Origin: a virus
Length of the DNA: 34,165 nucleotides
Reading direction: 5' to 3' (one strand)
IMG/VR virus record: IMGVR_UViG_3300027985_000326
Span: 1 to 34,165 of that record
The notes under the pieces are model-generated. The model ran no database searches. It saw nothing but the letters and a program-made list of their open reading frames with translations, and was not told the origin of the DNA. Below, one piece after another: positions 1-34,165 of this stretch (positions are counted from its first letter, which is position 1; every line of letters begins with the position of its first letter). Made by a program: the position numbers and the translations under genes.

Positions 1-144
1 AGGGCATCGTCGCCGCCTACAACGGCGAGAAGACCGAGGCCGTGCTGACTGGAATCGGCGCACTTGACAGGATCTGCGGTGGTTTTAACCCGGGCGATCT
101 GATCATTCTCGGCGGCAGGCCGTCGATGGGAAAGACTGCGCTCG
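1..144. repeat. Terminal direct repeat copy 1 (identical to 34022-34165)
   Basis: Base-by-base identity of 1-144 with 34022-34165. The repeat lies inside the dnaB-like coding frame. Confidence 0.97.
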
Positions 145-3669: not shown

Positions 3670-5345
3670 AGCAGGGCTACGGAGCGACGGCCGAGGCATA
3701 TGCGCGCGCTGTTGTGAAAGGTGAGATACCGGCGGGGCGATACATCGTTGCCGCGTGCCGGCGCCATCTGGACGATCTGGAATGGCAGGACGATGACGGG
3801 TTCAAGTTCCGCTTCGACCCAAAGGCCGGGGCTCGGGTCTGCGCCTTCATCGAGCAACTGCCACACACCAAGGGGAAATGGGCGGCCAAGGGGGAACGCC
3901 TGAAGCTTGAACCGTGGCAGGTGTTCTTCATCGTCTGCCTATTCGGGTGGCTGCGGAAGAAGGACGGGAAGCGGAGGTTTCGCAGGGCGCTGCTGCTGGT
4001 GCCGCGGAAGAACGGAAAGAGCGCGCTTGCCGCGGGAATCGGGCTTTACATGCTCTGCGCCGATGGGGAACACGGCGCCGAGGTCTATTCCGGCGCTACG
4101 AGCGAAAAGCAAGCATGGGAGGTCTTCCGTCCGGCGAAGCTGATGGCGCAGAAAAGCCCGGCGCTGGTCGACCATTTTTGCCTGACGGTCAACGCGAAGA
4201 ACCTGCACATCATCAGCAATGGGTCTCGGTTTGAGCCGATCATCGGGAACCCCGGAGACGGGGCCTCTCCGTCCTGCGCCATCGTCGACGAATACCACGA
4301 GCACGACACTGACGCGCTTTATTCGACCATGGAAACCGGGATGGGGGCACGGGAGCAGCCGCTCATGCTGGTGATCACGACCGCGGGCGACAATATCGCC
4401 GGGCCCTGCTACGCGATGCAGCACGAGGCCCAGCAGATGCTGGATGGATCGCGCCGAGATGATGAGACATTCGCGCTGATCTATGGCGTGGATGATGGAG
4501 ACGACTGGACAGACCGGGCGGTGCTGCGCAAGGCAAACCCGAATTTTGGGGTGAGCGTCTTCGAGGACTTCCTTCTGGCGCGGCAGGCAGAGGCCATGAA
4601 CAGCCCGCGCAAGGCCGGGGCGTTCAAGACCAAGCACCTCAATATCTGGGTGCAGAGCCGGGCGGCCTATTTCGACACGCTGCGATACCAGAAGGCGCCA
4701 AAGGTCAGGCTTGAGGATTTCGAGGGGCAAGAGTGCATCATCGGCATTGACCTTGCCGAGAAGCGAGACCTCACGGCGGTTGAACTGCTGTTCCGCCACG
4801 GCGACGGCTTCGCGCGCTTCGGGCGCTACTACCTGCCCGAGGAAACGGTCGATCGGCCGGAAAACGAACACCTGCAGCGGTGGCGCGATGAGGGACTCCT
4901 GATCCAGACGGACGGCGCCGTCACCGACGACCGCGAAATCCGCGACGACATTCTGGAGCTGGCCGAGCGGTTTAAAGTGCGCGAAGTCGCATTCGACCCG
5001 CTGCACAGCCGGCAGATGGCGGTGGAACTGATGGAGCGTGGCTTGACCTGCATCGACTATGCGAACCGGCCAACGCTGATGAATGAGCCGATGCGCAAGA
5101 TGGATGCGCTGATCGCGGACGGGAAACTGGCGCATGACGGTGACCCCGTCTTTGCATGGATGGTGTCGAACGTCGTGAACCGGAGCCGAACCGGCGACAT
5201 TCACAGCCCGGCGAAAGAGCGGGCAGAGAACAAGATCGACGGGCCGGTGGCCTGCATGATGGCGCTCGGGCGGTGGCTGCTCGATGAGGCCGGAGACGAG
5301 AGCACCCCGTGGGATGCTGACCCAGATTACAGGATGGCGATCTGA
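3666..5345 (+). CDS. Terminase large subunit
   Basis: 559 aa. Walker A-like 'VPRKNGKSALAAG', Walker B-like 'AIVDEYHEH', C-terminal nuclease-size domain. Located between TerS and portal. Confidence 0.9.
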   Translation: MKQGYGATAEAYARAVVKGEIPAGRYIVAACRRHLDDLEWQDDDGFKFRFDPKAGARVCAFIEQLPHTKGKWAAKGERLKLEPWQVFFIVCLFGWLRKKDGKRRFRRALLLVPRKNGKSALAAGIGLYMLCADGEHGAEVYSGATSEKQAWEVFRPAKLMAQKSPALVDHFCLTVNAKNLHIISNGSRFEPIIGNPGDGASPSCAIVDEYHEHDTDALYSTMETGMGAREQPLMLVITTAGDNIAGPCYAMQHEAQQMLDGSRRDDETFALIYGVDDGDDWTDRAVLRKANPNFGVSVFEDFLLARQAEAMNSPRKAGAFKTKHLNIWVQSRAAYFDTLRYQKAPKVRLEDFEGQECIIGIDLAEKRDLTAVELLFRHGDGFARFGRYYLPEETVDRPENEHLQRWRDEGLLIQTDGAVTDDREIRDDILELAERFKVREVAFDPLHSRQMAVELMERGLTCIDYANRPTLMNEPMRKMDALIADGKLAHDGDPVFAWMVSNVVNRSRTGDIHSPAKERAENKIDGPVACMMALGRWLLDEAGDESTPWDADPDYRMAI

Positions 5346-7249: not shown

Positions 7250-8503
7250 ATGAGCATCAAGGAACTGCGCGAGAAACAGGCGCGCATCACCGCCGAGGCG
7301 CGCGAGCGCCTTGACCTGATCAACGCGGAAACCGACGAAGCGCGGGCCGCCGAACTCGAAGCCGCGCACGACAAGGCGATGGCTGAATTCGACAAGATCG
7401 AGGAGCAGATCAAGCGCGAGCAGCGCATCGCCGACATGGAAGCGCGGATGCTGCAAGGCGACCCGCGCGCCCCGCGTGGCGACGACAAGCAGACGCGCGG
7501 GCAGGATGACGGCAAGACCGCAGAGTATCGCCACGTCTTTGCCAAGATCGTCTGCGGCGTCTCGCCCGCCGATCTGGAACCTGAAGAGCGCGCCGTCCTG
7601 AAAACCGGCATGGCCGAATTCCGAGCACAGACCGCCGGCACGACCACGGCGGGCGGCTACACCGTCCCGACCGAACTGATGAACCAGATCGAGCGCGCGA
7701 TGAAGGCGTGGGGCCCGATGTATGACACCGATGTCTGCACCGTGATCACCACGACCGGCGGCGGTGCGCTGAAGCTCCCGACCGTGGACGACACCGGCGT
7801 TTCGGCCGTTGCGCACGCCGAGGGAACGGCGCTCACCGATGACGGCGGCAGCGACGTGACGTTCGGCCAGAAGTCGCTCGACGCCTATGCCTTCGACACC
7901 GAATTCCTGCGCTGGTCGTGGGAACTCGACATGGACTCGATCTTCTCAATGGAGGCGCTGCTCGGTGACCTGCTCGGGGAGCGTCTGGCGCGCATCGCCA
8001 ATGCGCAGCTCACCACCGGCACCGGGTCCAGTGCGCCGAATGGTATCGTGACCGCCTCGGCTACGGGCAAGACCGCCGCCAGCGCGACCGCCATCACGTC
8101 CGACGAGATCATCGACCTTCTGCACTCGGTCGACCCGGCCTATCGCACCTCTCCGAAGGCCGCGTTCATGTTCAACGATGCGACCCTTGCGGCGGTGCGC
8201 AAACTCAAGGACGGCGACGGCAACTATCTGTGGCAGATGGGCAACGTTCAGGGCGGCGTTCCGGGCTCGCTGCTCGGGTATCGCTACTTCGTCAACCAGG
8301 CGATGGACAGCATCGCGGCCTCGAAAAAGGTCATGCTGTTCGGCGATCTCGGGAAATACTACGTCCGCAAGGTCGGCGGTCCGATCATCGGCGTGATGCG
8401 CGAGCGCTTCTGGCCGGATATGGGCATTGCCGGCCTGATCCGCTTCGATGGCGAGCTGGCGCAGTCTGGCGCGGTCAAGCACCTGGTCACTGCCGCGTCG
8501 TAA
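7250..8503 (+). CDS. Major capsid protein (HK97 fold) with N-terminal coiled-coil delta domain
   Basis: 417 aa. Charged helical N-terminus of about 100 aa, 'TTGTGSSAPNGIV', capsid-typical C-terminus. Follows the protease. Confidence 0.9.
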   Translation: MSIKELREKQARITAEARERLDLINAETDEARAAELEAAHDKAMAEFDKIEEQIKREQRIADMEARMLQGDPRAPRGDDKQTRGQDDGKTAEYRHVFAKIVCGVSPADLEPEERAVLKTGMAEFRAQTAGTTTAGGYTVPTELMNQIERAMKAWGPMYDTDVCTVITTTGGGALKLPTVDDTGVSAVAHAEGTALTDDGGSDVTFGQKSLDAYAFDTEFLRWSWELDMDSIFSMEALLGDLLGERLARIANAQLTTGTGSSAPNGIVTASATGKTAASATAITSDEIIDLLHSVDPAYRTSPKAAFMFNDATLAAVRKLKDGDGNYLWQMGNVQGGVPGSLLGYRYFVNQAMDSIAASKKVMLFGDLGKYYVRKVGGPIIGVMRERFWPDMGIAGLIRFDGELAQSGAVKHLVTAAS

Positions 8504-8529
8504 CGGCGCCGCGTCATAACGGCTTCAGG

Positions 8530-8552
8530 ATGGGGCGCCGTGTGCGCCCCAT
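8530..8552 (+). other. GC hairpin downstream of the capsid gene (no U-tract)
   Basis: ATGGGGCGC-CGTGT-GCGCCCCAT, 9-bp stem, 27 nt after the capsid stop. Possible mRNA stabiliser or partial terminator. Confidence 0.45.
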
Positions 8553-8577
8553 CGTCTCAAGCCGAAAGAGGACCGCC

Positions 8578-23290: not shown

Positions 23291-24325
23291 TTATGTAGTT
23301 TTCAGGGTTTTCCCTCTGGTGCGCTGGACTAAAACGGGTCCAGAGAGCTCCAGCGAACCGGCTGCGGCACGCAGGTGCTGCGGGCTAAACTGCGCATAGG
23401 TCGACCTGGTCACGCTCGGGTTCGAGTGCCCGAGATACTGCGCCACCTCCTCGATCGGGACGCCGGCCTCTACCATGAATCGGCCAGCAGTCCGGCGCAG
23501 ATCGTGCGGCGTGCAGTGCTCGATGCCGGCGCGCTTCACCGCAGCATTGAACCCGGTCTTGATCGAGCCGACCTTGCGCCCTCCCCACTCGACCACATAG
23601 GGAGAGATCGCGGCGGCCTTCGCCGTCTGCAGGGCGGCCATCAGCGAGTCGTTGATCGGCACGGTAGCACGCCCCTTTTTCGGTCCGATGTCATTCGTCG
23701 CGAGCCTCACCAGGCGGCGCTGCATGTCGACGCGATCCCAGGTCAGTTCGAGGATCGCGCCGATACGGCCGGCCGTGGTGAGTGCGAGCAGGATCGCGAG
23801 CTTGACATGCGGGTCCTGTGCGCCGTCCAGCAAGAGGCGCGTCTCGTCTCTGGTCAGGTATCTGTCCCTCGGCGGCGGCGCCTTCGGCAGCTCGATCTGT
23901 GGCACGACGGTGATCATGCGCCTCTTCTGGGCCCACAACAGCGCCGCGCGCAGGCAATTGAGCTCGGTGCGGATCGTGCCGTCCATGCGGCCCGCTTTGC
24001 GACGTCCGGCGATGTAGGCGCGACAGTCCTCGACGGCCACCTGCTCGGCGGCGAAATGGCCGAAGACGGGCAGGATGTTTCTGCCAACCTGAGCCAGCTT
24101 CGACGCCTGCCGCCGCTCCCCCATGTCGACGCGATACGCCTCCCAGATCTGCGCGACGGTGACCCCTGAAGCCGGCGCCTGCGCGTGGACGATCAGGTCG
24201 CGGGCCTCGCGCTCCGCATCTGTCTTTGTCTCAGCCGCAAGACGGTATCGACGGCGCTTGCCGTCGTCGTCGTTCCAGACGACGACCCACCGCCCTTTGA
24301 GGCGCCCGAGGCGATAGTCCCGCAT
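23291..24325 (-). CDS. int: Tyrosine integrase
   Basis: 344 aa. N-terminal arm-type domain 'YRLGRLKGRWVVVWNDDDGKRRRYRL'. C-terminal 'HDLRRTAGRFMVEAGVPIEEVAQYLGHSNPSVTRSTYAQF' shows the R..H..R..Y catalytic pattern. RBS GGAGGA. Confidence 0.92.
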   Translation of the reverse strand: MRDYRLGRLKGRWVVVWNDDDGKRRRYRLAAETKTDAEREARDLIVHAQAPASGVTVAQIWEAYRVDMGERRQASKLAQVGRNILPVFGHFAAEQVAVEDCRAYIAGRRKAGRMDGTIRTELNCLRAALLWAQKRRMITVVPQIELPKAPPPRDRYLTRDETRLLLDGAQDPHVKLAILLALTTAGRIGAILELTWDRVDMQRRLVRLATNDIGPKKGRATVPINDSLMAALQTAKAAAISPYVVEWGGRKVGSIKTGFNAAVKRAGIEHCTPHDLRRTAGRFMVEAGVPIEEVAQYLGHSNPSVTRSTYAQFSPQHLRAAAGSLELSGPVLVQRTRGKTLKTT

Positions 24326-25720: not shown

Positions 25721-26114
25721 GGCGCACCGCATGTTCCAGTGCGGTGAGGGCGCGTAGAGCTGGCTGACGAACTTTCCGCTCAAACACGTCTGGGCGCTTG
25801 GCTGCGGTAGGTAGACGGTCGAACTCATCGAACGACCTTACTGCCTCCACCAGCGCCATCACCTCCGGGCAGCGCATGGCCTCGGCCGGGGTTGGCAGCA
25901 GATCGGCGCGGCTGTTCCATCTGTTTATCGCGCGAGCGCGCTCAACATTAGCGCGCTCAACATTGTCACTGAGCGAAAACCCAATACACGGAGCAATCGG
26001 GCAGGTTCTATCTTCATCAACACAGCCACACACTCCGACATTGCCAAGCCTCTGGACCCACGTTTTCGCTTTCCCGCCACAGAATGGGCACGGCTTGAGT
26101 TCATGCTCGCTCAT
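25713..26114 (-). CDS. Lar-family restriction-alleviation-like protein with a C-terminal extension (133 aa)
   Basis: 'LKPCPFCGGKAK...C..C...' followed by 'ARAINRWNSRA' matches the Lar zinc-ribbon pattern. RBS AGGAGG. ATGA overlap with the upstream MTase. Confidence 0.65.
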   Translation of the reverse strand: MSEHELKPCPFCGGKAKTWVQRLGNVGVCGCVDEDRTCPIAPCIGFSLSDNVERANVERARAINRWNSRADLLPTPAEAMRCPEVMALVEAVRSFDEFDRLPTAAKRPDVFERKVRQPALRALTALEHAVRHE

Positions 26115-26800
26115 GCGGTCCTCCTGATCTCTTCGAGGGCGTGATCGCCCCATTGCTCGGCCGCCGCCCGCATCATCCCCGAGAAAGACCGGCTGCGCAG
26201 GCGGGCGCGGTCGGGGCCGGGAGGCATCCGGTGCACGCGGTTCCAGGACTTCCATTCGTCACTGCCGCGAACGGGCTCCTCGAGCCTGTCGGTCGGCCGA
26301 AGCGGCGGCAGCCCGCGCAGATACCAGCCGGTTCCCTTGTATTCCGGGTGACCGAACCAATGCGGCTGCACGACCTGCGGCGCCGGCAGGTCGGCGGGCA
26401 TGCGTGCTTTGGCGAGGTCGTGCATCTCCGGGTTCTCGATCGCCACGCGCGCGATCGGAGCGCGCCAGCAGGCGGTAAACAGGTCGACGCCATCCTCGAA
26501 CTCGGCGATCATGCTGGCCCAGCTGCGCCCCTTCGGCAGGGTCTTGGGCGGGGTCATCGCCCCGGGCCCGGACAGCCAGCGGCGGCCAGCGCGGCACAGG
26601 CGCGTGCAGGGCGGATGTGCGACCAGCAGCAGGTCCCAGCCATCGCCCAGAACGTCGCGGATGTCGCAAACCATATGCCGGTTGCTGCCGTCCTCGGCGG
26701 GCAGGATATCGCAGGACCAGACGTCATGGCCGCGGGCGGAAAATGCCCGCCGGCCGATGCCGCTGGTCTCGCAGCCGATCAGGACGCGCATGGCGGTCAT
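26111..26800 (-). CDS. Orphan DNA cytosine-C5 methyltransferase-like protein (229 aa)
   Basis: 'MRVLIGCETSG' (motif I-like), 'LLVAHPPCTRL' (PC catalytic motif IV), 'VAIENPEM' (ENV-like motif VI). No cognate endonuclease is present. Confidence 0.55.
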   Translation of the reverse strand: MTAMRVLIGCETSGIGRRAFSARGHDVWSCDILPAEDGSNRHMVCDIRDVLGDGWDLLLVAHPPCTRLCRAGRRWLSGPGAMTPPKTLPKGRSWASMIAEFEDGVDLFTACWRAPIARVAIENPEMHDLAKARMPADLPAPQVVQPHWFGHPEYKGTGWYLRGLPPLRPTDRLEEPVRGSDEWKSWNRVHRMPPGPDRARLRSRSFSGMMRAAAEQWGDHALEEIRRTA

Positions 26801-26907
26801 TCGTCGTCCTCCTCGTCCAGCTCCGCGAATGCCGCGAGCGCCATAAGCCCCAGCAGGACCACAACCAGCGCGCCGGTCAGCAGAAGGTTGATGGCGATGT
26901 CAGTCAT
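26797..26907 (-). CDS. Mini membrane protein (36 aa), below the ORF-track threshold
   Basis: ATG 26907 after GGAGGGAGG. 'MTDIAINLLLTGALVVVLLGLMALAAFAELDEEDDE'. ATGA overlap with the MTase start. Confidence 0.5.
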   Translation of the reverse strand: MTDIAINLLLTGALVVVLLGLMALAAFAELDEEDDE

Positions 26908-26909
26908 GG

Positions 26910-27095
26910 TCAGCCTCCCTCCGTTCCGATGAATTCGCGCAGGCGCTCAACGCTCAGGCCATGGTGCCGTGCGACGCTGTTGATGATGGCGGCGCGCTCA
27001 GTCTCGAGCAGCACACCGCCAGGGGTGTGCAGAGCCGCGGCGCGCAGGCGCTCATGCAACTCATCGCAGGCGTTGGAGATGGTGGAGCTGGTCAT
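26910..27095 (-). CDS. Hypothetical protein (61 aa)
   Basis: ATG 27095 with an ATGA overlap to the upstream gene. Helical. Confidence 0.5.
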   Translation of the reverse strand: MTSSTISNACDELHERLRAAALHTPGGVLLETERAAIINSVARHHGLSVERLREFIGTEGG

Positions 27096-27334
27096 GCGGC
27101 ACCGCCGGTCTCGCGAGCTGTGATCATGGCGTCTGCGATTTCGTATGCCCACGCCGCATGGTCTTGCGGTGAAAGCGACCATCCATCTGGCGCCGGGCAA
27201 CAAGCCCCGCTGATTGCCTGCCCGGCGAACCAGTCTCGCAGTGTCATGCCGGCATAACCTGGCACGAAATCAGGCCCAATTGACTGCAACGGAAACGCGG
27301 GGCCGCCGTCCTTGATCTCATCACTCATCGTCAT
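27092..27334 (-). CDS. Hypothetical phage protein (80 aa)
   Basis: 'GGPAFP...GMTLRDWFAGQA' is a motif seen in small conserved phage proteins. RBS GAGGA. Confidence 0.6.
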   Translation of the reverse strand: MTMSDEIKDGGPAFPLQSIGPDFVPGYAGMTLRDWFAGQAISGACCPAPDGWSLSPQDHAAWAYEIADAMITARETGGAA

Positions 27335-27343
27335 GTCCTCGTT

Positions 27344-27401
27344 GATCTCTCGGGATGCCGCCCGGCTCGCGGGCGGTCACCGGAGAGGTCAGATCAGGCG
27401 G
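27344..27401 (-). promoter_or_regulatory. Conserved stop-codon/hairpin RNA element, copy A (after recT)
   Basis: On the transcribed strand: CCGCCTGATCTGACCTCTCCGGTGA-CCGCCCG-CGAGC-CGGGCGG-CATCCCGAGAGATC. Near-identical to 32404-32458, with two compensatory stem base-pair swaps. Confidence 0.7.
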
Positions 27402-28198
27402 CCATCCTCAGCCTGCTCGTCCTGATGATGGATCACGGACATCGCTTCCTCCTCCGCGCGGGCGAGGTCTTCGGCGCTCGGCCAGAGGTCATGCGCCTGC
27501 TCGATCTGCGCCGGCGCAGCATCGTGGATTTCGTCGACTACGGTGTCGTCGACATAGACGGATCGGCCGGGACGCGGTGCTGCGCGAGGGGTCACATCGC
27601 GCGCGGTGTCGGGGCCGTAGTCCTGCACCTCCTCGGCAATCGAGAGTCCGAGCAGCGCATCCGGGGCTCCGTCGCGGATCGCGAAGGCCCGCGCGCGCAT
27701 CTGCAACATGCGCTCAGGATACTGCGTCCACGGGCCGGGCTTCTTCGACAGGCCTGCGCGCTCGGCATCGGACCATGAAAACCGGCGCACGATCTTCTTG
27801 CCGTCCTTGCGGGTCAGCGTGGCAACAGCGGCGCGTGTTTTGCCCTCGCCTTCCATCTCGACATCGACGAAATGGCCAGCAGCCATGACCATCGCAGGGA
27901 GGGCATCCCCCCAGACCGAGGGACGGCCATTGATGACTGCGATGTATTGCAGCGCCTGCATCGGCGCGAGGCCGACGTTCGCCCCCTGAAGGATCGCAGC
28001 CATGACGGCTTCGGGCTTGCCCTGAAAGTGCTTCGGGATCATGTCGCCCGCCTGCGAGAGCGCCTTCGCGAGGCGAAAGGCGTCCTCAATGGTGTGCGGC
28101 GTCATGGCTTCGATCAGGCCGGACTTGATGCCGCCAGCGATCGGCTTGAGCTTCGGAGGCTTCGGCGCAGCCTGAGCGGACAGTGCGGTTTCGGTCAT
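27389..28198 (-). CDS. recT: Single-strand annealing recombinase (RecT/Redbeta-type)
   Basis: 269 aa from ATG 28198 (RBS AGGAGGG). 'GANVGLAPMQALQYIAVINGRPSVWGDAL', 'YPERMLQMRARAFAIRD'. Paired with an exonuclease gene. Confidence 0.65.
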   Translation of the reverse strand: MTETALSAQAAPKPPKLKPIAGGIKSGLIEAMTPHTIEDAFRLAKALSQAGDMIPKHFQGKPEAVMAAILQGANVGLAPMQALQYIAVINGRPSVWGDALPAMVMAAGHFVDVEMEGEGKTRAAVATLTRKDGKKIVRRFSWSDAERAGLSKKPGPWTQYPERMLQMRARAFAIRDGAPDALLGLSIAEEVQDYGPDTARDVTPRAAPRPGRSVYVDDTVVDEIHDAAPAQIEQAHDLWPSAEDLARAEEEAMSVIHHQDEQAEDGRLI

Positions 28199-28212
28199 GG
28201 ATATTCCCTCCT

Positions 28213-29223
28213 TCACGGGGCTTGGAATTGCATCGAGGCGGCGCGGGCGGCCTCGCTCGGTTTGGGTTTCGGCGCGATTTCCGGGAAGCCGTGCGCGGCT
28301 GCGCTGTTGCGGCGGTGCCAGATCGGAGCGGCGATCTGCGCCACGCGGCGCGGGTATCCCGGCCACTCGCCACTATCGAGACAGGCCCGCCACTGGCGGC
28401 GCGCACGCCTGAGTTTCTGCTCGGCATCTGCGAACCAGTCTCCGGTCAGCGTCTCATCCGGCTCGTAATCGCTGGCCGGGCGCATCGTGCCATCTGACCA
28501 GAGTTCAACCACGCCGACCTCGAATGGCGGAGCCTTCTCGACGAACACGAACCGCATGGTGCGCTCCTCGCCGGTCAGCTCCTTCAGGATGCGCAGGTAA
28601 TGTGCCGCGCTGATGTCGTAGCCGCGATCTGCGACTGTCTTCGCCAGCGCATCCGGGTGAACGCTACCAGCCGTGGTCTTGAGGTCGAGCGCATATGTCT
28701 TTCCTGGCGGCAGGTTGTCGAACATGCAGCGGTTCCAGACGCCATCGAACTTCGCCAGCATCGCCACCTCGGAATGGTCCGGGTCGATGGGCATGTTCAT
28801 CTCGCGGAGCGCCGCTCCGACCTTGCGAGCGATGTGGTTAATGGCCTCGACCTCCGCCTCCTTGAGCGGCGTGACGCCCCGGTTTCGGCAGTCGGCGACG
28901 AATTCCTTCGCCTCCTTCGTGCGGATGCCGCCGTCGGCAGACAGCATTCCGTCGGGGATCGCCTCGAAGTCCTCACCCACTCCCAGCACCAGTCGGTGCG
29001 CGGCGGTGCCGATGTCGAAGGCCTTCTTCACCTCCGGCTCCCAATCCGGGTTCAGGCGAGGCGAGGCCGTCCAGGCATGAAGCGGCGTCTCCGAGATCAG
29101 CACCTTGGCGACGCTCGACGACAGGCTCGGCTCGGGCGCCGGATCGCTGTGATAGACATCGGCTGGCAGGCGGTAGACACCAGCGCCGAGGTGGACATTT
29201 TCAGGATGCAGGATTCCGTCCAT
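28213..29223 (-). CDS. PD-(D/E)XK exonuclease (RecE/DUF3799-like)
   Basis: 336 aa. 'GVYRLPADVYHSDPAPEPSLSSSVAKVL' opening, 'YALDLKTT' (D/E-x-K) core. Immediately upstream of recT. Confidence 0.7.
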   Translation of the reverse strand: MDGILHPENVHLGAGVYRLPADVYHSDPAPEPSLSSSVAKVLISETPLHAWTASPRLNPDWEPEVKKAFDIGTAAHRLVLGVGEDFEAIPDGMLSADGGIRTKEAKEFVADCRNRGVTPLKEAEVEAINHIARKVGAALREMNMPIDPDHSEVAMLAKFDGVWNRCMFDNLPPGKTYALDLKTTAGSVHPDALAKTVADRGYDISAAHYLRILKELTGEERTMRFVFVEKAPPFEVGVVELWSDGTMRPASDYEPDETLTGDWFADAEQKLRRARRQWRACLDSGEWPGYPRRVAQIAAPIWHRRNSAAAHGFPEIAPKPKPSEAARAASMQFQAP

Positions 29224-29474
29224 TACCTGGCCTCCATATGATCCGCCTGCCAGCGCGCGGCGGCATATCGCCCGAGAGGGTCGATGGCGCACAGGGCCAC
29301 CAGAGCGCAGACAGAGGCCGCGATCACCAGTAGCCGCAGTGCGGCAGGCATCTCCGCCTCCGCGCGCATCTGAGCGGCGTTGAGATTGGCCTGAGGCGCA
29401 CGGATCGCGTCGGCCTCCCGGATCATCCGGTCGCGCTCGATGTCGAGCCAGCTCGGGGTGATGATGGCGGTCAT
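29223..29474 (-). CDS. Hypothetical membrane protein (83 aa)
   Basis: TM segment 'LRLLVIAASVCALVALCAI'. Overlapping start and stop with both neighbours. Confidence 0.55.
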   Translation of the reverse strand: MTAIITPSWLDIERDRMIREADAIRAPQANLNAAQMRAEAEMPAALRLLVIAASVCALVALCAIDPLGRYAAARWQADHMEAR

Positions 29475-29644
29475 TTCGACACCGCCGCCGCCATCGCGTC
29501 TGCATCGACAAGCTCATCCGTCATCAGTGCGATCTGGCGCAGAGACTGGCGGTCAACCATCGGATGCTCGGTCGTGTCGCGGCATGCGCGGATAGCGGCA
29601 TAGGCCGCTCTGTTCAGCGCCCGGATTGCCTCACTGTAGGTCAT
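29471..29644 (-). CDS. Hypothetical protein (57 aa), below the ORF-track threshold
   Basis: ATG 29644 after AGGAG. 58 codons with high GC3. ATGA overlap with the next gene. Confidence 0.5.
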   Translation of the reverse strand: MTYSEAIRALNRAAYAAIRACRDTTEHPMVDRQSLRQIALMTDELVDADAMAAAVSK

Positions 29645-29658
29645 CTGAATCTCCTGTG

Positions 29659-29706
29659 AAAAAGCCGCGGGCTGAGTATGGGGAGGAGTACGCCTCAGCC
29701 CGCGGC
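29659..29706 (-). terminator. Strong intrinsic terminator inside the leftward early operon
   Basis: 13-bp perfect stem GCCGCGGGCTGAG/CTCAGCCCGCGGC, 17-nt loop, followed on the minus strand by TTTTT. It abuts the RBS of the 57-aa gene. Confidence 0.7.
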
Positions 29707-29769
29707 AGGTGTCCGCGCGATCCCCCGGCTAGAGGAGGGAGGCAGCAGCGCGGCGGTTATCTCGATCTG

Positions 29770-29807
29770 CCCCGGCCCTATGTGTCGTGAGTGGTGGCGG
29801 GCCGGGG
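29770..29807 (-). other. Second GC hairpin just after the first leftward gene
   Basis: CCCCGGCCC / GGGCCGGGG, 9-bp stem, 20-nt loop, no U-tract. Lies 8 nt downstream of the stop at 29815-17. Confidence 0.45.
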
Positions 29808-29814
29808 CGCGGTG

Positions 29815-30054
29815 TCAGCTGTTGTCCGGGTCGGACAGGAAGGCGGAGTGGCGCCACATCAGATCGCGCAGCTTCTCGGCCTCCTGATCGATCTGGATCA
29901 CGAGGTCGTCGATCTCGTCGGCCGCCTCGGGGTTATAGTCGCTGTAAGGGGCGATCCGCTGGGACTGCTCATACATCGCCACGATGCGGCTCAGCGGGTG
30001 CAGCGGGTCTGCCTTCCAGCGCTCCGCGACAGGGATGGAGGTATGGGCGTTCAT
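29815..30054 (-). CDS. First gene of the leftward early operon, acidic 79-aa hypothetical protein
   Basis: ATG 30054 after GGGAGA. Lies between the candidate PL/operators and the internal terminator. Confidence 0.6.
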   Translation of the reverse strand: MNAHTSIPVAERWKADPLHPLSRIVAMYEQSQRIAPYSDYNPEAADEIDDLVIQIDQEAEKLRDLMWRHSAFLSDPDNS

Positions 30055-30119
30055 TCATGTCTCCCATCTGTGGTCCCGCGATCGGCCCGGGGTGGGTGTC
30101 AGCGGCGGGTGATGGGGAT

Positions 30120-30148
30120 ACAGTAGCGTTCAGCGCTACTTTGCGCAA
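30120..30148 (-). promoter_or_regulatory. Candidate early-left promoter (TTGCGC-N17-TACTGT)
   Basis: Minus-strand -35 at 30148-30143 and -10 at 30125-30120. Operator O1 fills the spacer and the -10. Confidence 0.45.
30122..30140. promoter_or_regulatory. Operator O1: AGTAGCG-TTCAG-CGCTACT
   Basis: Perfect 7-bp inverted repeat with a 5-bp spacer. Confidence 0.7.
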
Positions 30149-30155
30149 CATAAAA

Positions 30156-30174
30156 AATAGCGATTAGCGCTACT
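30156..30174. promoter_or_regulatory. Operator O2: AATAGCG-ATTAG-CGCTACT
   Basis: Same 19-bp dyad with one mismatch. Centre is 34 bp from the O1 centre. Confidence 0.65.
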
Positions 30175-30230
30175 CTGTGTTGAGATCGGCATGTCGTTAG
30201 AATGGATGAGTTTTCTCGCTTCCAGACAGC

Positions 30231-30252
30231 AAAAAGCCCGCGCATGGCGGGC
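30231..30252 (-). terminator. Intrinsic terminator after the repressor gene
   Basis: Minus strand reads GCCCGC-CATGC-GCGGGC-TTTTT, 29 nt downstream of the stop at 30281. Confidence 0.7.
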
Positions 30253-30280
30253 CTCATGGCGTGGTCATGATAGAGATTGC

Positions 30281-30946
30281 TCAGATCTTCTGGACAAACT
30301 CGGGCGGCAGCGCTAGCCGAACTGGGGCCGCCCAGGTGAGCCTGACCCCGTGCATATTCTCGGCCTCCGGGTTCAGCGAGATCAGGCTGAAGGTGCCCTC
30401 CTCAGCCCCGATCTTGACTTGCTTCACCCAAGCCATGCCGGCCTCATCCTCGCAGACGCAGATGCGACCGATAGCCTCGGTCGGAACGCCAATCGTATCA
30501 CGCCGGTAGAATAGCACGGATCCCGGCTCATAGGTCGGCGCCATGCTAGTGCCTTCGACCTCGACAGCGACGATTCCGTGGGGGCTGATCTGCGGCGGAC
30601 AGGCAACGTGATAGAGCCCGTCGCCCTTCGAGTAGGCATCGACCAGATCGACCTTAGCGCCGGCACCGACTTTGCCTGCTACTGCGACGGCACGCGCATC
30701 TTCGATGGGATATCCAGTGAACTCAGCGATCACTCGAGCCTCTGACGCCTTCACGTCGCGGATCGTCGTCATCTTCTGAACCATAGACTTGTCGTAAGTC
30801 TGGCCGATCTTCGCCTTCGTCAGTGCATCAGCAAGAAGGTCAAACGTGACCTTTTTCCCGCGGATCTCCGCATGCTCAATGGCATCGCGGACCCACTGGT
30901 TAATCTGCGCCATCGGCGGTGTCTTATATGCGCGTTTGCGTGCCAT
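30281..30946 (-). CDS. CI-type repressor with an S24 (LexA-like) autopeptidase domain
   Basis: 221 aa. C-terminal 'VEVEGTSMAPTY' (Ser nucleophile) and 'AWVKQVKIG' (Lys), matching LexA/CI S24. N-terminal helical DNA-binding region. Alternative start at 30913. Confidence 0.82.
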   Translation of the reverse strand: MARKRAYKTPPMAQINQWVRDAIEHAEIRGKKVTFDLLADALTKAKIGQTYDKSMVQKMTTIRDVKASEARVIAEFTGYPIEDARAVAVAGKVGAGAKVDLVDAYSKGDGLYHVACPPQISPHGIVAVEVEGTSMAPTYEPGSVLFYRRDTIGVPTEAIGRICVCEDEAGMAWVKQVKIGAEEGTFSLISLNPEAENMHGVRLTWAAPVRLALPPEFVQKI

Positions 30947-30952
30947 GTCGCG

Positions 30953-30981
30953 ATTGTAGCGGTGACCGCTAATCGCGTCAG
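30953..30981 (-). promoter_or_regulatory. Candidate repressor maintenance promoter (CTGACG-N17-TACAAT)
   Basis: The -10 TACAAT ends 6 nt before ATG 30946, implying a leaderless mRNA. O3 overlaps the spacer and -10. Confidence 0.35.
30955..30973. promoter_or_regulatory. Operator O3: TGTAGCG-GTGAC-CGCTAAT
   Basis: Core TAGCG-N5-CGCTA dyad shared with O1, O2 and O4. Confidence 0.6.
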
Positions 30982-31004
30982 TCGCTCGCTGCGCTACAAT
31001 CCCA

Positions 31005-31033
31005 TTGCCAAAAGTAGCGTTGAGCGCTACCTT
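31005..31033 (+). promoter_or_regulatory. Candidate early-right promoter (TTGCCA-N17-TACCTT)
   Basis: Same layout as the left promoter. Spacer AAAGTAGCGTTGAGCGC compares with AAAGTAGCGCTGAACGC. The -10 ends 6 nt before ATG 31040. Confidence 0.45.
31013..31031. promoter_or_regulatory. Operator O4: AGTAGCG-TTGAG-CGCTACC
   Basis: 19-bp dyad with 6 of 7 bp per arm symmetric. Sits in the PR spacer. Confidence 0.7.
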
Positions 31034-31039
31034 GCCGTC

Positions 31040-31279
31040 ATGGAACCTGCAAAGAACATCATCGCAAGGCTGGGTGGACCCGCGCAGGTCGCGGATGCCC
31101 TCGGCATTCATCGCACCCGCCCTTACTGCTGGATGAAGTCGCGAGAGCGCGGCGGAACTGGCGGGCTGATCCCGCAAGAGCACTTTCAGCGCCTCATTGA
31201 GATTGGCGCCGAGAGGGGAGTCGTCCTCACCGGGGACGATTTTGTCCCAACCCCGTCGGTGCGTAAGGCCTCCGCATGA
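31040..31279 (+). CDS. Cro/YdaS-like small HTH protein (79 aa)
   Basis: Divergent from the repressor. 'IIARLGGPAQVADALGIHRTRPYCWMK' is a Cro/YdaS-type HTH. No SD upstream of the ATG. Confidence 0.65.
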   Translation: MEPAKNIIARLGGPAQVADALGIHRTRPYCWMKSRERGGTGGLIPQEHFQRLIEIGAERGVVLTGDDFVPTPSVRKASA

Positions 31280-31343
31280 CCGACCACCCTGAAAATTCAT
31301 CTCTTCCATGGCGCCACCATGGCAACCCGGAGGCCGCACGGCC

Positions 31344-31793
31344 ATGAGAAACGGCATTCTGATTTCGCAGGAAGATGCGGCGCGGCGCATGGAAGATGCT
31401 CTGCGCCTTCGGGTCGGACGTGGAAGGCGTTTCTCGTTTCCGGCGCTTTCGGATGCGACCGGCATTCCGACGCGAACGCTCGAAAGCTATGTGCAGGGGG
31501 CAACTCCTCAATTGCATGCGCTGCTGTCGATCTGCTCCGTCCTCGGGCCGTCGTTCACGAGTGACGTTCTGTCGCCCTGCGGACAGGCGGCGCATGATGC
31601 GGCCCCGGGCGAACCGGAGCACATGCGTGTCGTCGCTGCCCTTGGTGAGCTGGTGACGCAGATTTCAGAGGCTATCTCCGATGGCCATGTCGACCACCGA
31701 GAGGCAGCGCGGATGCGGCCGATCGCGGCGCGTCTGATCGAACTGCTGGAGCCTCTGGCGCAGGTGTCTCACGTCGCAGGGATTGGGAAATGA
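31344..31793 (+). CDS. HTH regulator, CII-like by position (149 aa)
   Basis: 'LSDATGIPTRTLESYVQGATPQLHALLSICSVLG' is an XRE-type HTH. Second gene of the rightward operon. Start 31344 (GGAGG upstream) or 31308. Confidence 0.55.
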   Translation: MRNGILISQEDAARRMEDALRLRVGRGRRFSFPALSDATGIPTRTLESYVQGATPQLHALLSICSVLGPSFTSDVLSPCGQAAHDAAPGEPEHMRVVAALGELVTQISEAISDGHVDHREAARMRPIAARLIELLEPLAQVSHVAGIGK

Positions 31794-32011
31794 CTGACCT
31801 CCGCACCGTCCATATCCCGGTGTCCCTCTCTGACGGGAACCGCGCCGCAACCGTGTCGCTCGCCCGGGCACCGTGGGAGCCGCAGTCGTCGCAGGTCACA
31901 GACCACAGCGAGACGGCGCCCACAGGCCGGGTGATCCGGCATGAGAGGCCCCGCCGCATCTTCGAGGGCGTCACGCTGGCGCATCTGCATGAGCGTGGGG
32001 TGGATGCATGA
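31790..32011 (+). CDS. Hypothetical protein (73 aa)
   Basis: ATGA overlap at 31790. Confidence 0.5.
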   Translation: MTDLRTVHIPVSLSDGNRAATVSLARAPWEPQSSQVTDHSETAPTGRVIRHERPRRIFEGVTLAHLHERGVDA

Positions 32012-32169
32012 CCGACGCCGCCACCATCGCCAGCGACATCCGCATGATCCGCGCGTGTCGATCCATCGAGGAGCTGGACGCATACGAGGCCGAGGCGCGC
32101 CGCCGCGGTCTCGATCCGCACGAGGTCACCGCCATCGCTGAGCAGCGGCGGCGGATGGCGAAGAGATGA
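32008..32169 (+). CDS. Hypothetical protein (53 aa), below the ORF-track threshold
   Basis: ATG 32008 overlaps the TGA at 32009-11. 54 codons with high GC3. Its stop overlaps the ATG at 32166. Confidence 0.45.
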   Translation: MTDAATIASDIRMIRACRSIEELDAYEAEARRRGLDPHEVTAIAEQRRRMAKR

Positions 32170-32240
32170 CCGCGCCGCGGTCCAGATTTCCCAGCTGGGA
32201 AGCAACAGCGGAAAGAGCCGCGCAACACAAGGAGAAACCC

Positions 32241-32411
32241 ATGAACGACCTCACCGATGCCCAGAAGGCCACGCTCGAGCGCATCAAGGCTGCAACCGGC
32301 GCCATCGTCCTGCCCGTGTCCGCGGCACGCGCGCTCGTTGCCAAGGGCCTGATCAAGTCGGACGGCACCAAAGGCCACGGCAAGGCCAAGGCCGCCTACA
32401 TCGCCGCCTGA
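32241..32411 (+). CDS. Hypothetical protein (56 aa; 81 aa if started at 32166)
   Basis: ATG 32241 preceded by AAGGAGAAACCC. Its stop TGA is embedded in hairpin element copy B. Confidence 0.55.
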   Translation: MNDLTDAQKATLERIKAATGAIVLPVSAARALVAKGLIKSDGTKGHGKAKAAYIAA

Positions 32412-32478
32412 TCTGACCTCTCCGGTGACCGGCCCCGCGCGGGCCGGCATCCCGAAAGCCAGTGAGCGAGAGGAGATC
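32404..32478 (+). promoter_or_regulatory. Conserved stop-codon/hairpin RNA element, copy B, including the SD-pairing arm
   Basis: CCGCCTGATCTGACCTCTCCGGTGA-CCGGCCC-CGCGC-GGGCCGG-CATCCCGAAAG. The arm GATCT(GA)CCTCTC (32410-22) is complementary to GAGAGGAGATC (32468-78), the SD region of the gene at 32482. Confidence 0.7.
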
Positions 32479-32481
32479 GCC

Positions 32482-32994
32482 ATGAACAAAAGAGCCGACA
32501 TTCACCACGACATGGAAGGGGCGGAGCCCGAGCTGAAGCTCGACACGCTCAAGGGAGACATCCGGGATGCGATGCTGTCGCGGATCCGGCAGATGAAGAC
32601 CGGCTGGCCGCTGCTGGTAGAGGCTGAGCAGGCCGAAATCGTCAACGGCATCGAGATGGCTGCCGGGCACATCATCCGCTCCGTGGTGCGTGAGTTGACC
32701 GCTCATCAGTGGCCCTATGCCGTCGTCACGCTCGGCGAGGTCAAGATCAAGGGCGAGAAGGGGATCGAAGCCAAGATCGGGTGCTCGAACATCGAGCACA
32801 ACCGTTCGGTCCTGGGCGAGCATGTCGGCCAGATGGTGCAGATCGTCATGGTCGACAGCGACCAGTTCATGGGCCAGCGCGACGACCCGGAAATCCAGCC
32901 CGATCAGTCAGACATGTTCTCCGGCCAGAATGAGGACGATGGCCCCGATGATGACGGCCCCCGTATGCTTCCGCGCCCGGAGGATCTGGACTGA
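32482..32994 (+). CDS. Hypothetical protein with an acidic C-terminal tail (170 aa)
   Basis: ATG 32482 after GAGAGGAG. C-terminus 'NEDDGPDDDGPRMLPRPEDLD'. Function unknown. Confidence 0.6.
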   Translation: MNKRADIHHDMEGAEPELKLDTLKGDIRDAMLSRIRQMKTGWPLLVEAEQAEIVNGIEMAAGHIIRSVVRELTAHQWPYAVVTLGEVKIKGEKGIEAKIGCSNIEHNRSVLGEHVGQMVQIVMVDSDQFMGQRDDPEIQPDQSDMFSGQNEDDGPDDDGPRMLPRPEDLD

Positions 32995-33407
32995 TGAAGC
33001 GAGCCGAGTTCACCGTTCCTGGGCTGCCAAAGGGGAAGGCCCGCCCGCGCGCGACCTTCGTGAACGGCCGGGCTCGGCTCTACACCCCGAAGACCACTGT
33101 CGAGTTCGAGGACAAGGTGCGCACCGCGGCTACGCCGCATTTCAACCGGCCCATCAGCGGGCCGGTGAAGCTGCGCATCGTCGCCTATTTCCCCATGCCG
33201 AAGAGCTGGTCGAAGCGTCGGCGCGCGGAAATGGACGGCAAGCTGCACACGCAAAAGCCGGACAAAGACAATGTGGAAAAGGCGATCTGCGACGGCCTGA
33301 ACGGCACGGCATGGGTCGACGATTGTCTCGTGGCCGATGGCCGGTGCGTGAAGCGCTGGTCCACCGTCGCCGAGACATTCGTGCAGGTCGAGGAGGTCGA
33401 GGAGTGA
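32994..33407 (+). CDS. rusA: RusA-family Holliday junction resolvase
   Basis: 'FTVPGLPKGKARPR...', 'KPDKDNVEKAICDGLNGTAWVDDCLV' are RusA signature blocks. Confidence 0.88.
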   Translation: MKRAEFTVPGLPKGKARPRATFVNGRARLYTPKTTVEFEDKVRTAATPHFNRPISGPVKLRIVAYFPMPKSWSKRRRAEMDGKLHTQKPDKDNVEKAICDGLNGTAWVDDCLVADGRCVKRWSTVAETFVQVEEVEE

Positions 33408-33508
33408 GCCCCGAGAAGACGACGCAGGTGCCAGCGTCTGCCGCTCCAGCATGGAGGAGCATCGGCTCTATCGCAGCCGAAATCGTGAAGAAAGCCTCTG
33501 GAAAATGA
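33404..33508 (+). CDS. Candidate 34-aa ORF between rusA and dnaB
   Basis: GTGA overlap with the rusA stop and ATGA-type overlap with the dnaB start. No RBS evident. Confidence 0.3.
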   Translation: MSPEKTTQVPASAAPAWRSIGSIAAEIVKKASGK

Positions 33509-34165
33509 ACACCGTGACCGCCATTCGTGCTGATGCGCTCCCGATGAATATCGAGGCGGAGCAGCAGCTGATCGGGATGGCACTCCTGGAGCCGTCGATC
33601 CTGTCGCGCATCGCCATGCGTGGAGGGGCCGCCCTGTTCGCTGAGCCGACGCATGCTCGCGCATTCGAGGCTATGGTCGCCAAGGAGCGCGTCGGGCACC
33701 AGGTAGATATTGTGACGGTCGGGGAGGCCATGAGGGGGGAGGAGTGCCTCTCCGCTCTCGGCGGGCCGTCATATCTGGCGCGCTGTGCAGGGGCCTGCAT
33801 GAGCCCTGTCGCGGCACCTGGCTACATCGACATTTTGGCAGATCTCGCCGCCAAGCGCAGCCTGATCTCGGCCATGTCGGAGGCGCAAGCATCCATTGCC
33901 CGCGGTGACATGCAGGCCGCGCAGATCGCGGCGCGGCTGGAGGCGTCTCTGATCGCGGCATCCGACGTCGACGCAAAGCGCGGTCCCGTGTCGATGCAGG
34001 CCGCCGTTTTGAAGGCGCTCAAGGGCATCGTCGCCGCCTACAACGGCGAGAAGACCGAGGCCGTGCTGACTGGAATCGGCGCACTTGACAGGATCTGCGG
34101 TGGTTTTAACCCGGGCGATCTGATCATTCTCGGCGGCAGGCCGTCGATGGGAAAGACTGCGCTCG
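33505..34165 (+). CDS. dnaB: Replicative DNA helicase DnaB-like, N-terminal part (runs off the window end and continues at 1..875 on the circle)
   Basis: ATG at 33505 overlaps the upstream TGA (33506-08). The frame stays open to the window end. N-terminal 'NIEAEQQLIGMALLEPS' is DnaB N-domain-like. The frame is continuous with 3..875 through the repeat; the joined ORF is 1,392 nt (463 aa). Confidence 0.85.
   Translation, partial: MNTVTAIRADALPMNIEAEQQLIGMALLEPSILSRIAMRGGAALFAEPTHARAFEAMVAKERVGHQVDIVTVGEAMRGEECLSALGGPSYLARCAGACMSPVAAPGYIDILADLAAKRSLISAMSEAQASIARGDMQAAQIAARLEASLIAASDVDAKRGPVSMQAAVLKALKGIVAAYNGEKTEAVLTGIGALDRICGGFNPGDLIILGGRPSMGKTAL
34022..34165. repeat. Terminal direct repeat copy 2 (identical to 1-144)
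   Basis: Same as copy 1. Position 34022 corresponds to position 1. Confidence 0.97.

Follow-up and report, generated by a model that had tools for sequence, protein, structure and literature searches.

The inverted repeat carried by this phage genome consists of two members of a previously undescribed family of ~55-nt intergenic hairpins. The structure, covariation, placement and orientation of the family are shown by the sequences that we compared, and the view that the element is a new structured motif absent from Rfam, belonging in kind with conserved intercistronic phage hairpins, is well supported. The original prediction took the repeat for a cassette reused in two operons, with an outer helix that in one copy hides the Shine-Dalgarno (SD) sequence of the next gene until a ribosome terminates on the upstream gene, or for a protein- or RNase-controlled switch; taken as a whole, this interpretation is partly supported.

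The window, i.e. the whole stretch of 34,165 nucleotides that was analysed, represents the complete genome of a temperate phage, circularly permuted and 34,021 bp long (positions 1-144 recur at 34022-34165), with a GC content of 63%. Its gene content was assigned by Pfam and PHROG searches:

23291-24325, leftward early operon: integrase; the operon also holds Lar and a DNA methyltransferase
27092-27334, leftward early operon: 80-aa gene
27389-28366, leftward early operon: RecT
28213-29517, leftward early operon: exonuclease
~30281-31300, minus strand, immunity region: CI-like S24 repressor
31308-31793, rightward early operon: cro/cII-like gene; the operon also holds three small ORFs
32241-32411, rightward early operon: 56-aa gene
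32482-32994, rightward early operon: 170-aa gene
32994-33407, rightward early operon: RusA
past RusA, rightward early operon: DnaB-like helicase spanning the window end, primosomal protein, HNH endonuclease and terminase

The closest relatives of the 170-aa protein (65-69% identity) are encoded in prophages of Paracoccus, Salipiger and Pseudodonghicola; the protein has no Pfam or PDB relative, and its sole match is PHROG 6576. A megablast search of window positions 26000-34000 against phages gave no match.

Two copies of the element in the window

The arms of the inverted repeat (27347-27405 and 32400-32458) are 59 nt long and 88% complementary, and the 23-mer CTGATCTGACCTCTCCGGTGACC occurs exactly twice in the window even when up to three mismatches are allowed, where shuffled sequences are expected to hold none. 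Copy A, in the leftward operon, and copy B, in the rightward operon, are identical over 33 nt 5' of a 19-nt hairpin core and over 10 nt 3' of it; all five differences between them fall within the core, and these include two compensatory pairs and the central loop base. The upstream stop codons of the two copies are different TGAs of CTGATCTGA, and the two stops are therefore in different frames. The parts of both copies, with scores from the covariance model R1 described below, are as follows:

32409-32411, plus strand: TGA stop of the 56-aa gene (ATG 32241; open reading frame 32166-32411), whose C-terminus, AAYIAA*, is native to its gene family, as seen in L064 and L160
32413-32462, plus strand: canonical family hairpin of copy B (model R1, 62.7 bits; alignment A3)
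32413-32420, plus strand: copy B 5' basal arm, CTGACCTC
32421-32427, plus strand: copy B box TCCGGTG, followed by a bulged A at 32428
32429-32435 with 32441-32447, plus strand: copy B stem, closed by the loop CGCGC at 32436-32440
32448-32455, plus strand: copy B box CATCCCGA
32456-32462, plus strand: copy B family 3' arm, AAGCCAG
32468-32478, plus strand: copy-specific second 3' partner, GAGAGGAGATC, pairing with 32410-32422
27343-27392, minus strand: canonical family hairpin of copy A (model R1, 68.3 bits; present in the minimum-energy fold)
27392-27385, minus strand: copy A 5' basal arm, CTGACCTC, containing the RecT stop TGA at 27391-27389
27384-27378, minus strand: copy A box TCCGGTG, followed by a bulged A at 27377
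27376-27370 with 27364-27358, minus strand: copy A stem, closed by the loop CGAGC at 27369-27365
27357-27350, minus strand: copy A box CATCCCGA
27349-27343, minus strand: copy A 3' arm, GAGATCA
27326-27340, minus strand: SD GAGGA (27340-27336) and start region of the 80-aa gene, outside the hairpin

The geometry originally proposed for copy B is borne out by the sequence: the extended 5' arm GATCTGACCTCTC at 32410-32422 starts inside the TGA at 32409-32411, which lies 2 nt 5' of the canonical arm; it pairs as 5 + 6 bp around a GA bulge with GAGAGGAGATC at 32468-32478 and encloses the GC hairpin; and GAGAGGAGATC holds the GGAG SD (32472-32475) of the 170-aa gene, 6 nt before the ATG at 32482. 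This 3' arm pairs as proposed but is an addition specific to the copy, and the prediction had missed the family arm AAGCCAG at 32456-32462, whose GCCAG pairs with CUGAC. For copy A, GAGAGATC is found on the minus strand at 27351-27344, just 5' of GAGGA, as had been described; it comprises the family 3' arm together with the GA of the box, and the outer helix proposed there is indeed the family basal helix, but this helix does not cover the SD. The 80-aa gene has an ATG at 27334 where its start had been placed, but an in-frame ATG at 27328 has the better SD spacing. In keeping with the prediction, the outer helix is present when either 32395-32490 or the reverse complement of 27325-27410 is folded to minimum energy; the z-scores of these whole-segment folds are only −1.7 and −1.6, respectively.

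The sequence of the window's own arm appears to be private to this phage, since exact-flank searches of IMG/VR and of metagenomes gave no genuine match: in IMG/VR, the 16-mer GACCTCTCCGGTGACC of the exact arm and the pattern CTCCGGTGACC-N17-21-GGCATCC gave chance matches within coding sequence only, and two scans of JGI metagenomes with the exact flanks gave no matches. A second copy was sought in the relative L045/L051 and was not found. We also considered whether copy A could derive from copy B, duplicated along with the last part of the 56-aa gene. This idea was weakened by the presence of GCCGCC-UGA before four unrelated family members as well, and an alignment of RecT C-termini, inspected for a chimeric end, had tails too variable to show one.

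A family of covarying intercistronic hairpins

A sensitive blastn search of GenBank phages with copy B gave intergenic matches in Microcystis phages Mae-JY02 and Mel-JY03 and in Paracoccus phage Pben1; these loci have the same boxes, a different stem, and an outer helix that differs in sequence yet remains complementary. A pattern constraining nothing but the boxes and the loop (TCCGGTG-N8-CGNGC-N7-CATCCNGA) was then run against IMG/VR and matched 17 loci, 16 of which are perfect hairpins; because the pattern left the stem and arms free, their covariation was not built in by the search. A covariance model (R1), built from 18 sequences, added diverged members and extra copies on the same contigs (L050, L064, L165, L166 and L185), and a scan with the loop left unconstrained, in which CGNGC was kept in five of seven matches, added L185 and L186. 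The family now comprises at least 26 members with R1 scores of 43-75 bits, and no score above 29 bits was obtained on a background of ~1.03 Mb of other GC-rich viral loci. There are one or two copies per contig, several contigs other than the window also having two, and the idea of a reused cassette thus extends well beyond this phage.

The members were found in temperate phages and prophages of Rhodobacterales-type hosts; the family was seen only in phage or prophage contexts, and no R1-family copy was found in 7.3 Gb of plasmids. Rfam 15 gave no match at the gathering threshold on the whole window; at E ≤ 10, only chance matches of 3-12 bits were obtained on 32380-32500, and none on L173. 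A literature search found no published description of the hairpin family. No protein is common to all element-bearing contigs, the most frequent neighbour being PHROG 210 (7 of 19 contigs).

The consensus of the family, (GCC)CUGAC-NN-UCCGGUG-W-[7-bp GC stem, loop CGNGC]-CAUCCNGA-NN-GYCAG, describes a hairpin of ~20 bp in three parts: a basal helix, in which CUGAC-NN pairs with NN-GYCAG; an invariant irregular middle, in which UC pairs with GA, a mismatch (C.C or C.A) precedes GG/CC, and UG/CA has unpaired bases on either side, a bulged U before it and a bulged A, U or C after it; and an apical, variable 7-bp GC stem capped by CGNGC. The boxes UCCGGUG and CAUCCNGA and the loop CGNGC are nearly invariant across the family. 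In an ungapped alignment (A3) scored against the named 20-pair structure, 91% of cells pair and two-sided changes are seen at 14 of the 20 pairs; 500 shuffles all fall short on every pairing measure, and partners slid out of register pair at 32-47%. RNAalifold gives the same fold unaided.

Covariation is also seen between orthologous copies. L180 and L168 carry elements after a PHROG 210 gene with flanks that are 82% identical, and their basal helices differ by compensatory changes (CCCU/AUGG vs. CGC/GCG), with a U.G to C-G change in the stem; such changes indicate selection on structure in place. The comparisons, both across the family and between orthologous copies, support the outer (basal) helix as a selected feature. 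Hairpins of other kinds recur at the same slots: before the 170-aa gene, the relative L064 has a plain 8-bp GC hairpin, and the hairpin of L041-L044, L049 and L060-L063 combines a 5-bp stem and an 8-nt loop, GGNGNUCR, that itself covaries; after PHROG 210, degenerate forms of the element are present in L163 and L166.

In the placements examined, the element lies sense-oriented between co-directional ORFs, with a same-strand ORF ending at or just before it, and the GenBank annotation of Pben1 and Mae-JY02, made by the authors of those records, agrees with this placement. Many members share the stop codon inside the outer helix that was described for the window: of 20 placements, 13 use the UGA of CUGAC to end the upstream gene, and in A3 the GC stem starts 12-13 nt downstream of the U in this UGA. 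On the downstream side, a start codon with an SD could be called for 19 of 22 members (all but L181, L169 and L179). The distance from the basal helix to this start is 8-23 nt in 17 of the 19, 4 nt in L064 and 78 nt in L168. The neighbouring genes are mutually unrelated, those upstream including RecT, PHROG 210, the major head protein and a recombination directionality factor, and a gene-specific leader or riboswitch is thereby ruled out. Some contigs have two members within one operon, and one member follows the major head gene.

Further candidates were also rejected. On inspection of the sequences, readthrough or frameshifting at UGA-C does not agree with arms of 7 nt in some cases and 8 nt in others, which shift the frames of the boxes, and the UGA of GGUGA closes one frame. 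A CRISPR-repeat mimic, a ribozyme or a riboswitch was set aside on the lack of an Rfam match, the unrelated neighbours, and a basal helix unlike a CRISPR repeat.

Proposed ribosome-dependent opening and competing explanations

SD sequestration had been put forward for copy B, as part of a cassette reused in two operons. For this copy, the folding models agree with this proposal: the 11 pairs of the SD arm have probabilities of 0.86-1.00 each; the fold that includes them has an energy of −44.4 kcal/mol, compared to −33.3 kcal/mol for the canonical fold with the SD arm barred from pairing; and the probability that the SD is unpaired rises from 0.02 in the free RNA to 0.90 with 32397-32421 held open, as by a ribosome on the stop, in line with the release originally predicted. 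Copy B is thus strongly predicted, from modelled folds, to be set up as an SD-sequestering translational coupler. Its 5' arm contains GAUCUGACCUCUC, which we take to resemble the anti-SD end of 16S rRNA, and this likeness would explain its capture of the extended SD.

The proposal does not carry over to the family. The SD region of copy A lies outside the helix, with a mean probability of being unpaired of 0.47; values of 0.39-0.87 are predicted for most other members; and of the members whose downstream start could be called, just two, copy B (0.02) and Pben1 (0.18), seem to have a sequestered SD, Pben1 being the sole other member with a similar duplicated SD-bearing arm. Since the SD is predicted to be free in most members and sequestered in copy B, sequestration does not define the family and is, on these models, an elaboration of copy B. 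SD sequestration with translational coupling is in itself an ordinary mechanism, limited here to one copy.

For the family as a whole, our preferred reading, which we hold tentatively, is that the element may well be an intercistronic mRNA hairpin opened by terminating ribosomes, which would tune the expression ratio of the flanking cistrons. We favour an RNA role because of the fixed sense orientation, the geometry of stop and start, the selection on structure in place, and the recurrence of hairpins at these slots. The hairpin fills the gap between two co-directional genes, usually with the upstream stop in the 5' strand of the basal helix; a ribosome terminating on this stop would open the basal and middle helices, whereas the GC stem, at the mouth of the mRNA channel, would stay folded; and the opened 3' strand, which adjoins the downstream ribosome-binding site, would be freed. 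Downstream initiation would then depend on upstream termination, strongly in copy B and weakly or not at all where the SD is free. Coupling needs no sequence-specific boxes, yet the boxes and loop are nearly invariant, so coupling alone does not explain them; the invariant boxes would imply a binding factor, and boxes and loop might be read by a putative RNase III-type nuclease or other RNA-binding protein. Counted against coupling are the SD predicted to be free in most members and the lack of a nearby downstream start in L181, L169, L179 and L168.

The nearest rival, which we consider unlikely but which may coexist with coupling, is that the element is an RNA processing or stability hairpin, at which an RNase III-type cut or a block to 3'-to-5' decay would segment the polycistronic mRNA, in the way known from the RNase III sites of T7 and lambda and from the Rhodobacter puf hairpin, and any effect on downstream translation would be secondary. 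The helix has the size of an RNase III site (~two turns of irregular dsRNA, 18-20 predicted pairs, one mismatch and two bulges), and its length and conserved irregularities would fit a site recognised by a nuclease or another protein; the element follows phage genes that are typically highly expressed, e.g. RecT and the major head protein; and the GC stem, 12-13 nt past the stop, would persist under a terminating ribosome. A second hairpin, tailed by AAUUUU, stands downstream of the element in Mae-JY02, and the degenerate copy of L163 precedes a separate U-tract hairpin; both are consistent with processing. However, with the stop in the basal helix, translating ribosomes would keep opening half of the proposed substrate.

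Somewhat less probable again is a function in DNA, in which the element would be a folded or palindromic junction at module boundaries, recombination-promoting or mobile like attC or REP sequences, and its sense orientation and built-in stop would be by-products of terminating the upstream ORF. In all four comparisons of related phages, nucleotide similarity spans the upstream gene and is lost where the element ends on its 3' side; L173 and L175 share elements of 96% identity amid unrelated adjoining DNA; an identical 35-nt core occurs in at least five unrelated contexts; and six members, including both window copies, have GCCGCC directly before UGA although the upstream proteins are unrelated. 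These breakpoints, cores and GCCGCC runs point to movement or exchange, and the breakpoints and shared cores count against the RNA reading in that they fit a DNA-level explanation equally well. In 20 of 22 members the antisense strand is the more stable when folded (by 6.3 kcal/mol on average), which also suits a DNA element, and counts of wobble pairs (19 A.C vs. 11 G.U) do not point to the sense strand; both results count against the RNA reading. attC sites have extrahelical bases, which the conserved mismatch and bulges of the element recall.

Several observations nevertheless speak against a DNA junction. No dedicated recombinase was found, and the window integrase scores 28 bits against the integron-integrase model TIGR02249, for which the cut-off is 265; there are one or two copies per contig rather than arrays, and none in the plasmids searched; and the ends read (GC)CUGAC/GYCAG rather than RYYYAAC/GTTRRRY. 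Compensatory evolution in place argues for a selected phage function and not for decay after insertion; joints in mosaic phage genomes fall at gene boundaries in any case, and the element fills the whole boundary; and the window copies follow the direction of transcription, probably on the same side of the replication genes. A narrower version, by analogy with attC, is more doubtful than the general one: a portable ~55-nt DNA hairpin with its own stop, tied to the 3' end of a gene and acting as a crossover point for swaps of downstream modules between tailed phages, with no integron integrase.

It is improbable that the element is a transcription terminator or attenuator that parts segments of the early operons in the manner of tR1 or tL, possibly with the help of a factor. 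Each early operon does have a strong GC hairpin, which follows the recombination genes in the leftward operon and the small early genes in the rightward one, and relatives have other hairpins at the same slot; however, the tails, which read CAUCCNGA-NN-GYCAG, are devoid of a U tract in every member, which makes termination unlikely, neither copy was listed by a terminator scan, the U-tract hairpin of L163 follows the degenerate copy as a separate structure, and no antiterminator gene was found in the window by Pfam and PHROG annotation.

Least probable of all is a mimic of 5S rRNA helix III and loop C that would bind uL5, uL18 or the ribosome: the boxes joined without the inner hairpin give UCCCAUCCCGA(A), which equals the helix III closing pairs plus loop C and is identical in real 5S genes of Paracoccus and Sulfitobacter, the basal helix resembles 5S helix III, and for most members the hairpin-deleted elements match three 5S sequences in local alignment better than all but 1-19 of 2000 shuffles, but this comparison was made post hoc after many mental ones and amounts to a single test given the invariant boxes, CAUCC pairs with GGUG in the element instead of being looped, and the Rfam 5S model does not match it.

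If the element acts as RNA, as we tentatively prefer, it would be a compact and portable module connecting consecutive phage genes, the end of the first with the beginning of the second, and its invariant recognition surface points to a putative Rhodobacterales factor encoded by host or phage; a cultivable system for the element is available in Pben1 of Paracoccus. If it acts as DNA, it would be a defined sequence that joins phage modules and would bear on the origin of mosaic phage genomes. In addition, the motif would improve the annotation of stops, starts and operons in these phages.

Comparison with known systems

SD-sequestering translational coupling is known from, e.g., the MS2 coat-replicase and rpmI-rplT pairs. 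Copy B resembles these in that the anti-SD-like GAUCUGACCUCUC pairs with the extended SD and is predicted to be displaced by a terminating ribosome, freeing the SD; the likeness is, however, limited to copy B and perhaps Pben1, whereas the family leaves the SD outside the helix and adds invariant boxes. The RNase III intercistronic hairpins of T7 and lambda, at which processing alters translation of the downstream cistron and a protective hairpin remains at the 3' end, are likewise irregular, ~20 bp long and placed between phage cistrons, and have conserved internal-loop features; they share no sequence similarity with the family, whose stop codon lies inside the helix. REP sequences and the intercistronic decay-terminator hairpin of Rhodobacter puf are, like the family, GC-rich and placed after genes, and can set differential expression of neighbouring cistrons, but REPs are spread across the host genome in both orientations, whereas the family was found only in phages and prophages and is in the sense orientation wherever this was checked.

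Integron attC sites have core sites R'' (RYYYAAC) and R' (GTTRRRY). Like the family, they are imperfect hairpins, ~55-60 nt long, placed in a fixed orientation where an ORF ends and often with the stop in the 5' inverse core, and they also have a variable central stem, conserved unpaired bases and homology that ends at the 3' end; they differ in core sequence, and the family is found without an integron integrase or cassette arrays. Like lambda nut and HK022 put, the window copies are short and stand once in each of the leftward and rightward early operons, in inverted orientation. Unlike those sites, they lie 1-2.5 kb from the likely promoters, overlap a stop and have no boxA, and no antiterminator gene was found; each is a single long hairpin, one after RecT and one after four small genes, and other members occur twice in one operon or after a major head gene.

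The closest published analogue of the family is formed by the extended start-associated sequences (ESAS) of Cluster K mycobacteriophages, in which a 13-bp SAS containing an SD occurs ~11-19 times per genome and an ESAS accompanies about half of these (PMC3203893). Both the ESAS and the family are conserved imperfect inverted repeats with a variable centre, found at several junctions of temperate phage genomes in one orientation, just upstream of translation starts, and both are suspected of a role in translation. They differ in sequence and hosts, and the family is set apart by its tie to the upstream stop, its one or two copies per contig, and its long covarying helix.

Parallels to copy B and the borders of the element

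The architecture of copy B, in which the intercistronic hairpin carries, besides its canonical 3' arm, a second 3' arm that contains the Shine-Dalgarno sequence, recurs in L180 (Paracoccus phage Pben1) at record positions of about 4440-4510: there, CU separates the canonical 3' arm, GGUCAG, from a second arm downstream of it, GUCAGGAGG, which bears the Shine-Dalgarno sequence. The predicted minimum-energy fold of the Pben1 element uses this second arm. At copy A, the downstream 80-aa gene contains two in-frame ATGs, at 27334 and 27328 of the window. GAGGAC ends only 1 nt upstream of the former and 7 nt upstream of the latter, and ATG 27328 is the likelier start.

At its 5' border, the element is preceded in six members by GCCGCC immediately 5' of the UGA stop codon:

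Window 32403-32411, copy B
Window 27397-27389, copy A
L168, L170, L173 and L175, four other viral loci

GCCGCC encodes a C-terminal Ala-Ala in copy B and the four other loci; in RecT at copy A it is read in another frame, and the C-terminus is GRLI*. Because the upstream proteins of these six members are unrelated, the conserved unit of the element may reach into the upstream ORF.

Folding of the two strands was compared in the family alignment A4. The antisense strand folds better than the sense strand for 20 of the 22 members, and its average advantage is 6.3 kcal/mol. The sense strand contains 19 A.C mismatches vs. 11 G.U pairs; the A of the stop codon takes part in nine of these 19 A.C cases.

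Members, lookalikes and other hairpins

A member that scores fully against the family covariance model R1 (68 bits) is present in L181 (PP395635, Microcystis phage Mae-JY02) at record positions 29576-29634. The host recorded for this phage is the cyanobacterium Microcystis; for the other members and relatives, those named hosts that could be identified belong to Rhodobacterales (Paracoccus, Pseudodonghicola). The host given in the Mae-JY02 record may deserve checking. In L182 (Mycobacterium phage Che9c, whose host is an actinobacterium), an intergenic hairpin follows the head-tail adaptor gene at record positions 8388-8430, with the sequence CCUGA-CGGUGA-UCGGCCC-CGCGC-GGGCCG-CGAUCCAG; R1 scores it at 28.8 bits (E about 3e-5).

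In the relatives L041-L044, L049 and L060-L063, the slot that copy B occupies ahead of the 170-aa gene holds a second, different conserved hairpin, which lies about 20-60 nt upstream of the homologue of that gene. Its stem is 5 bp long (GCCGC/GCGGC; compensatory variants read GCUGC/GCAGC or GCCAC/GUGGC), and its loop, GGNGNUCR, has 8 nt. In L064, a plain GC hairpin of 8 bp fills the slot instead.

The window is a complete phage genome, circular or circularly permuted and 34,021 bp in length. Window positions 1-144 are duplicated exactly at 34022-34165, and a DnaB-like helicase gene crosses the window end. It contains a further hairpin, unrelated to the intercistronic family:

Window 8529-8553, perfect 10-bp GC-rich hairpin GATGGGGCGC-CGTGT-GCGCCCCATC, 26 nt past ORF 7250-8503

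The flanks of this hairpin, CGGCUU and AAGCCG, are mutually complementary too. ORF 7250-8503, which carries no annotation here, is probably the major capsid gene, judged by its place after the terminase genes.

Likeness to 5S rRNA

We compared the element with the 5S rRNA genes L183 and L184, a comparison made post hoc and of uncertain significance: without the inner hairpin, the invariant boxes (alignment A3, columns 13-15 plus 40-47) join as UCCCAUCCCGA(A). In Rhodobacterales 5S rRNA, the identical sequence makes up the closing pairs of helix III together with loop C, and helix III also resembles the basal helix of the element.
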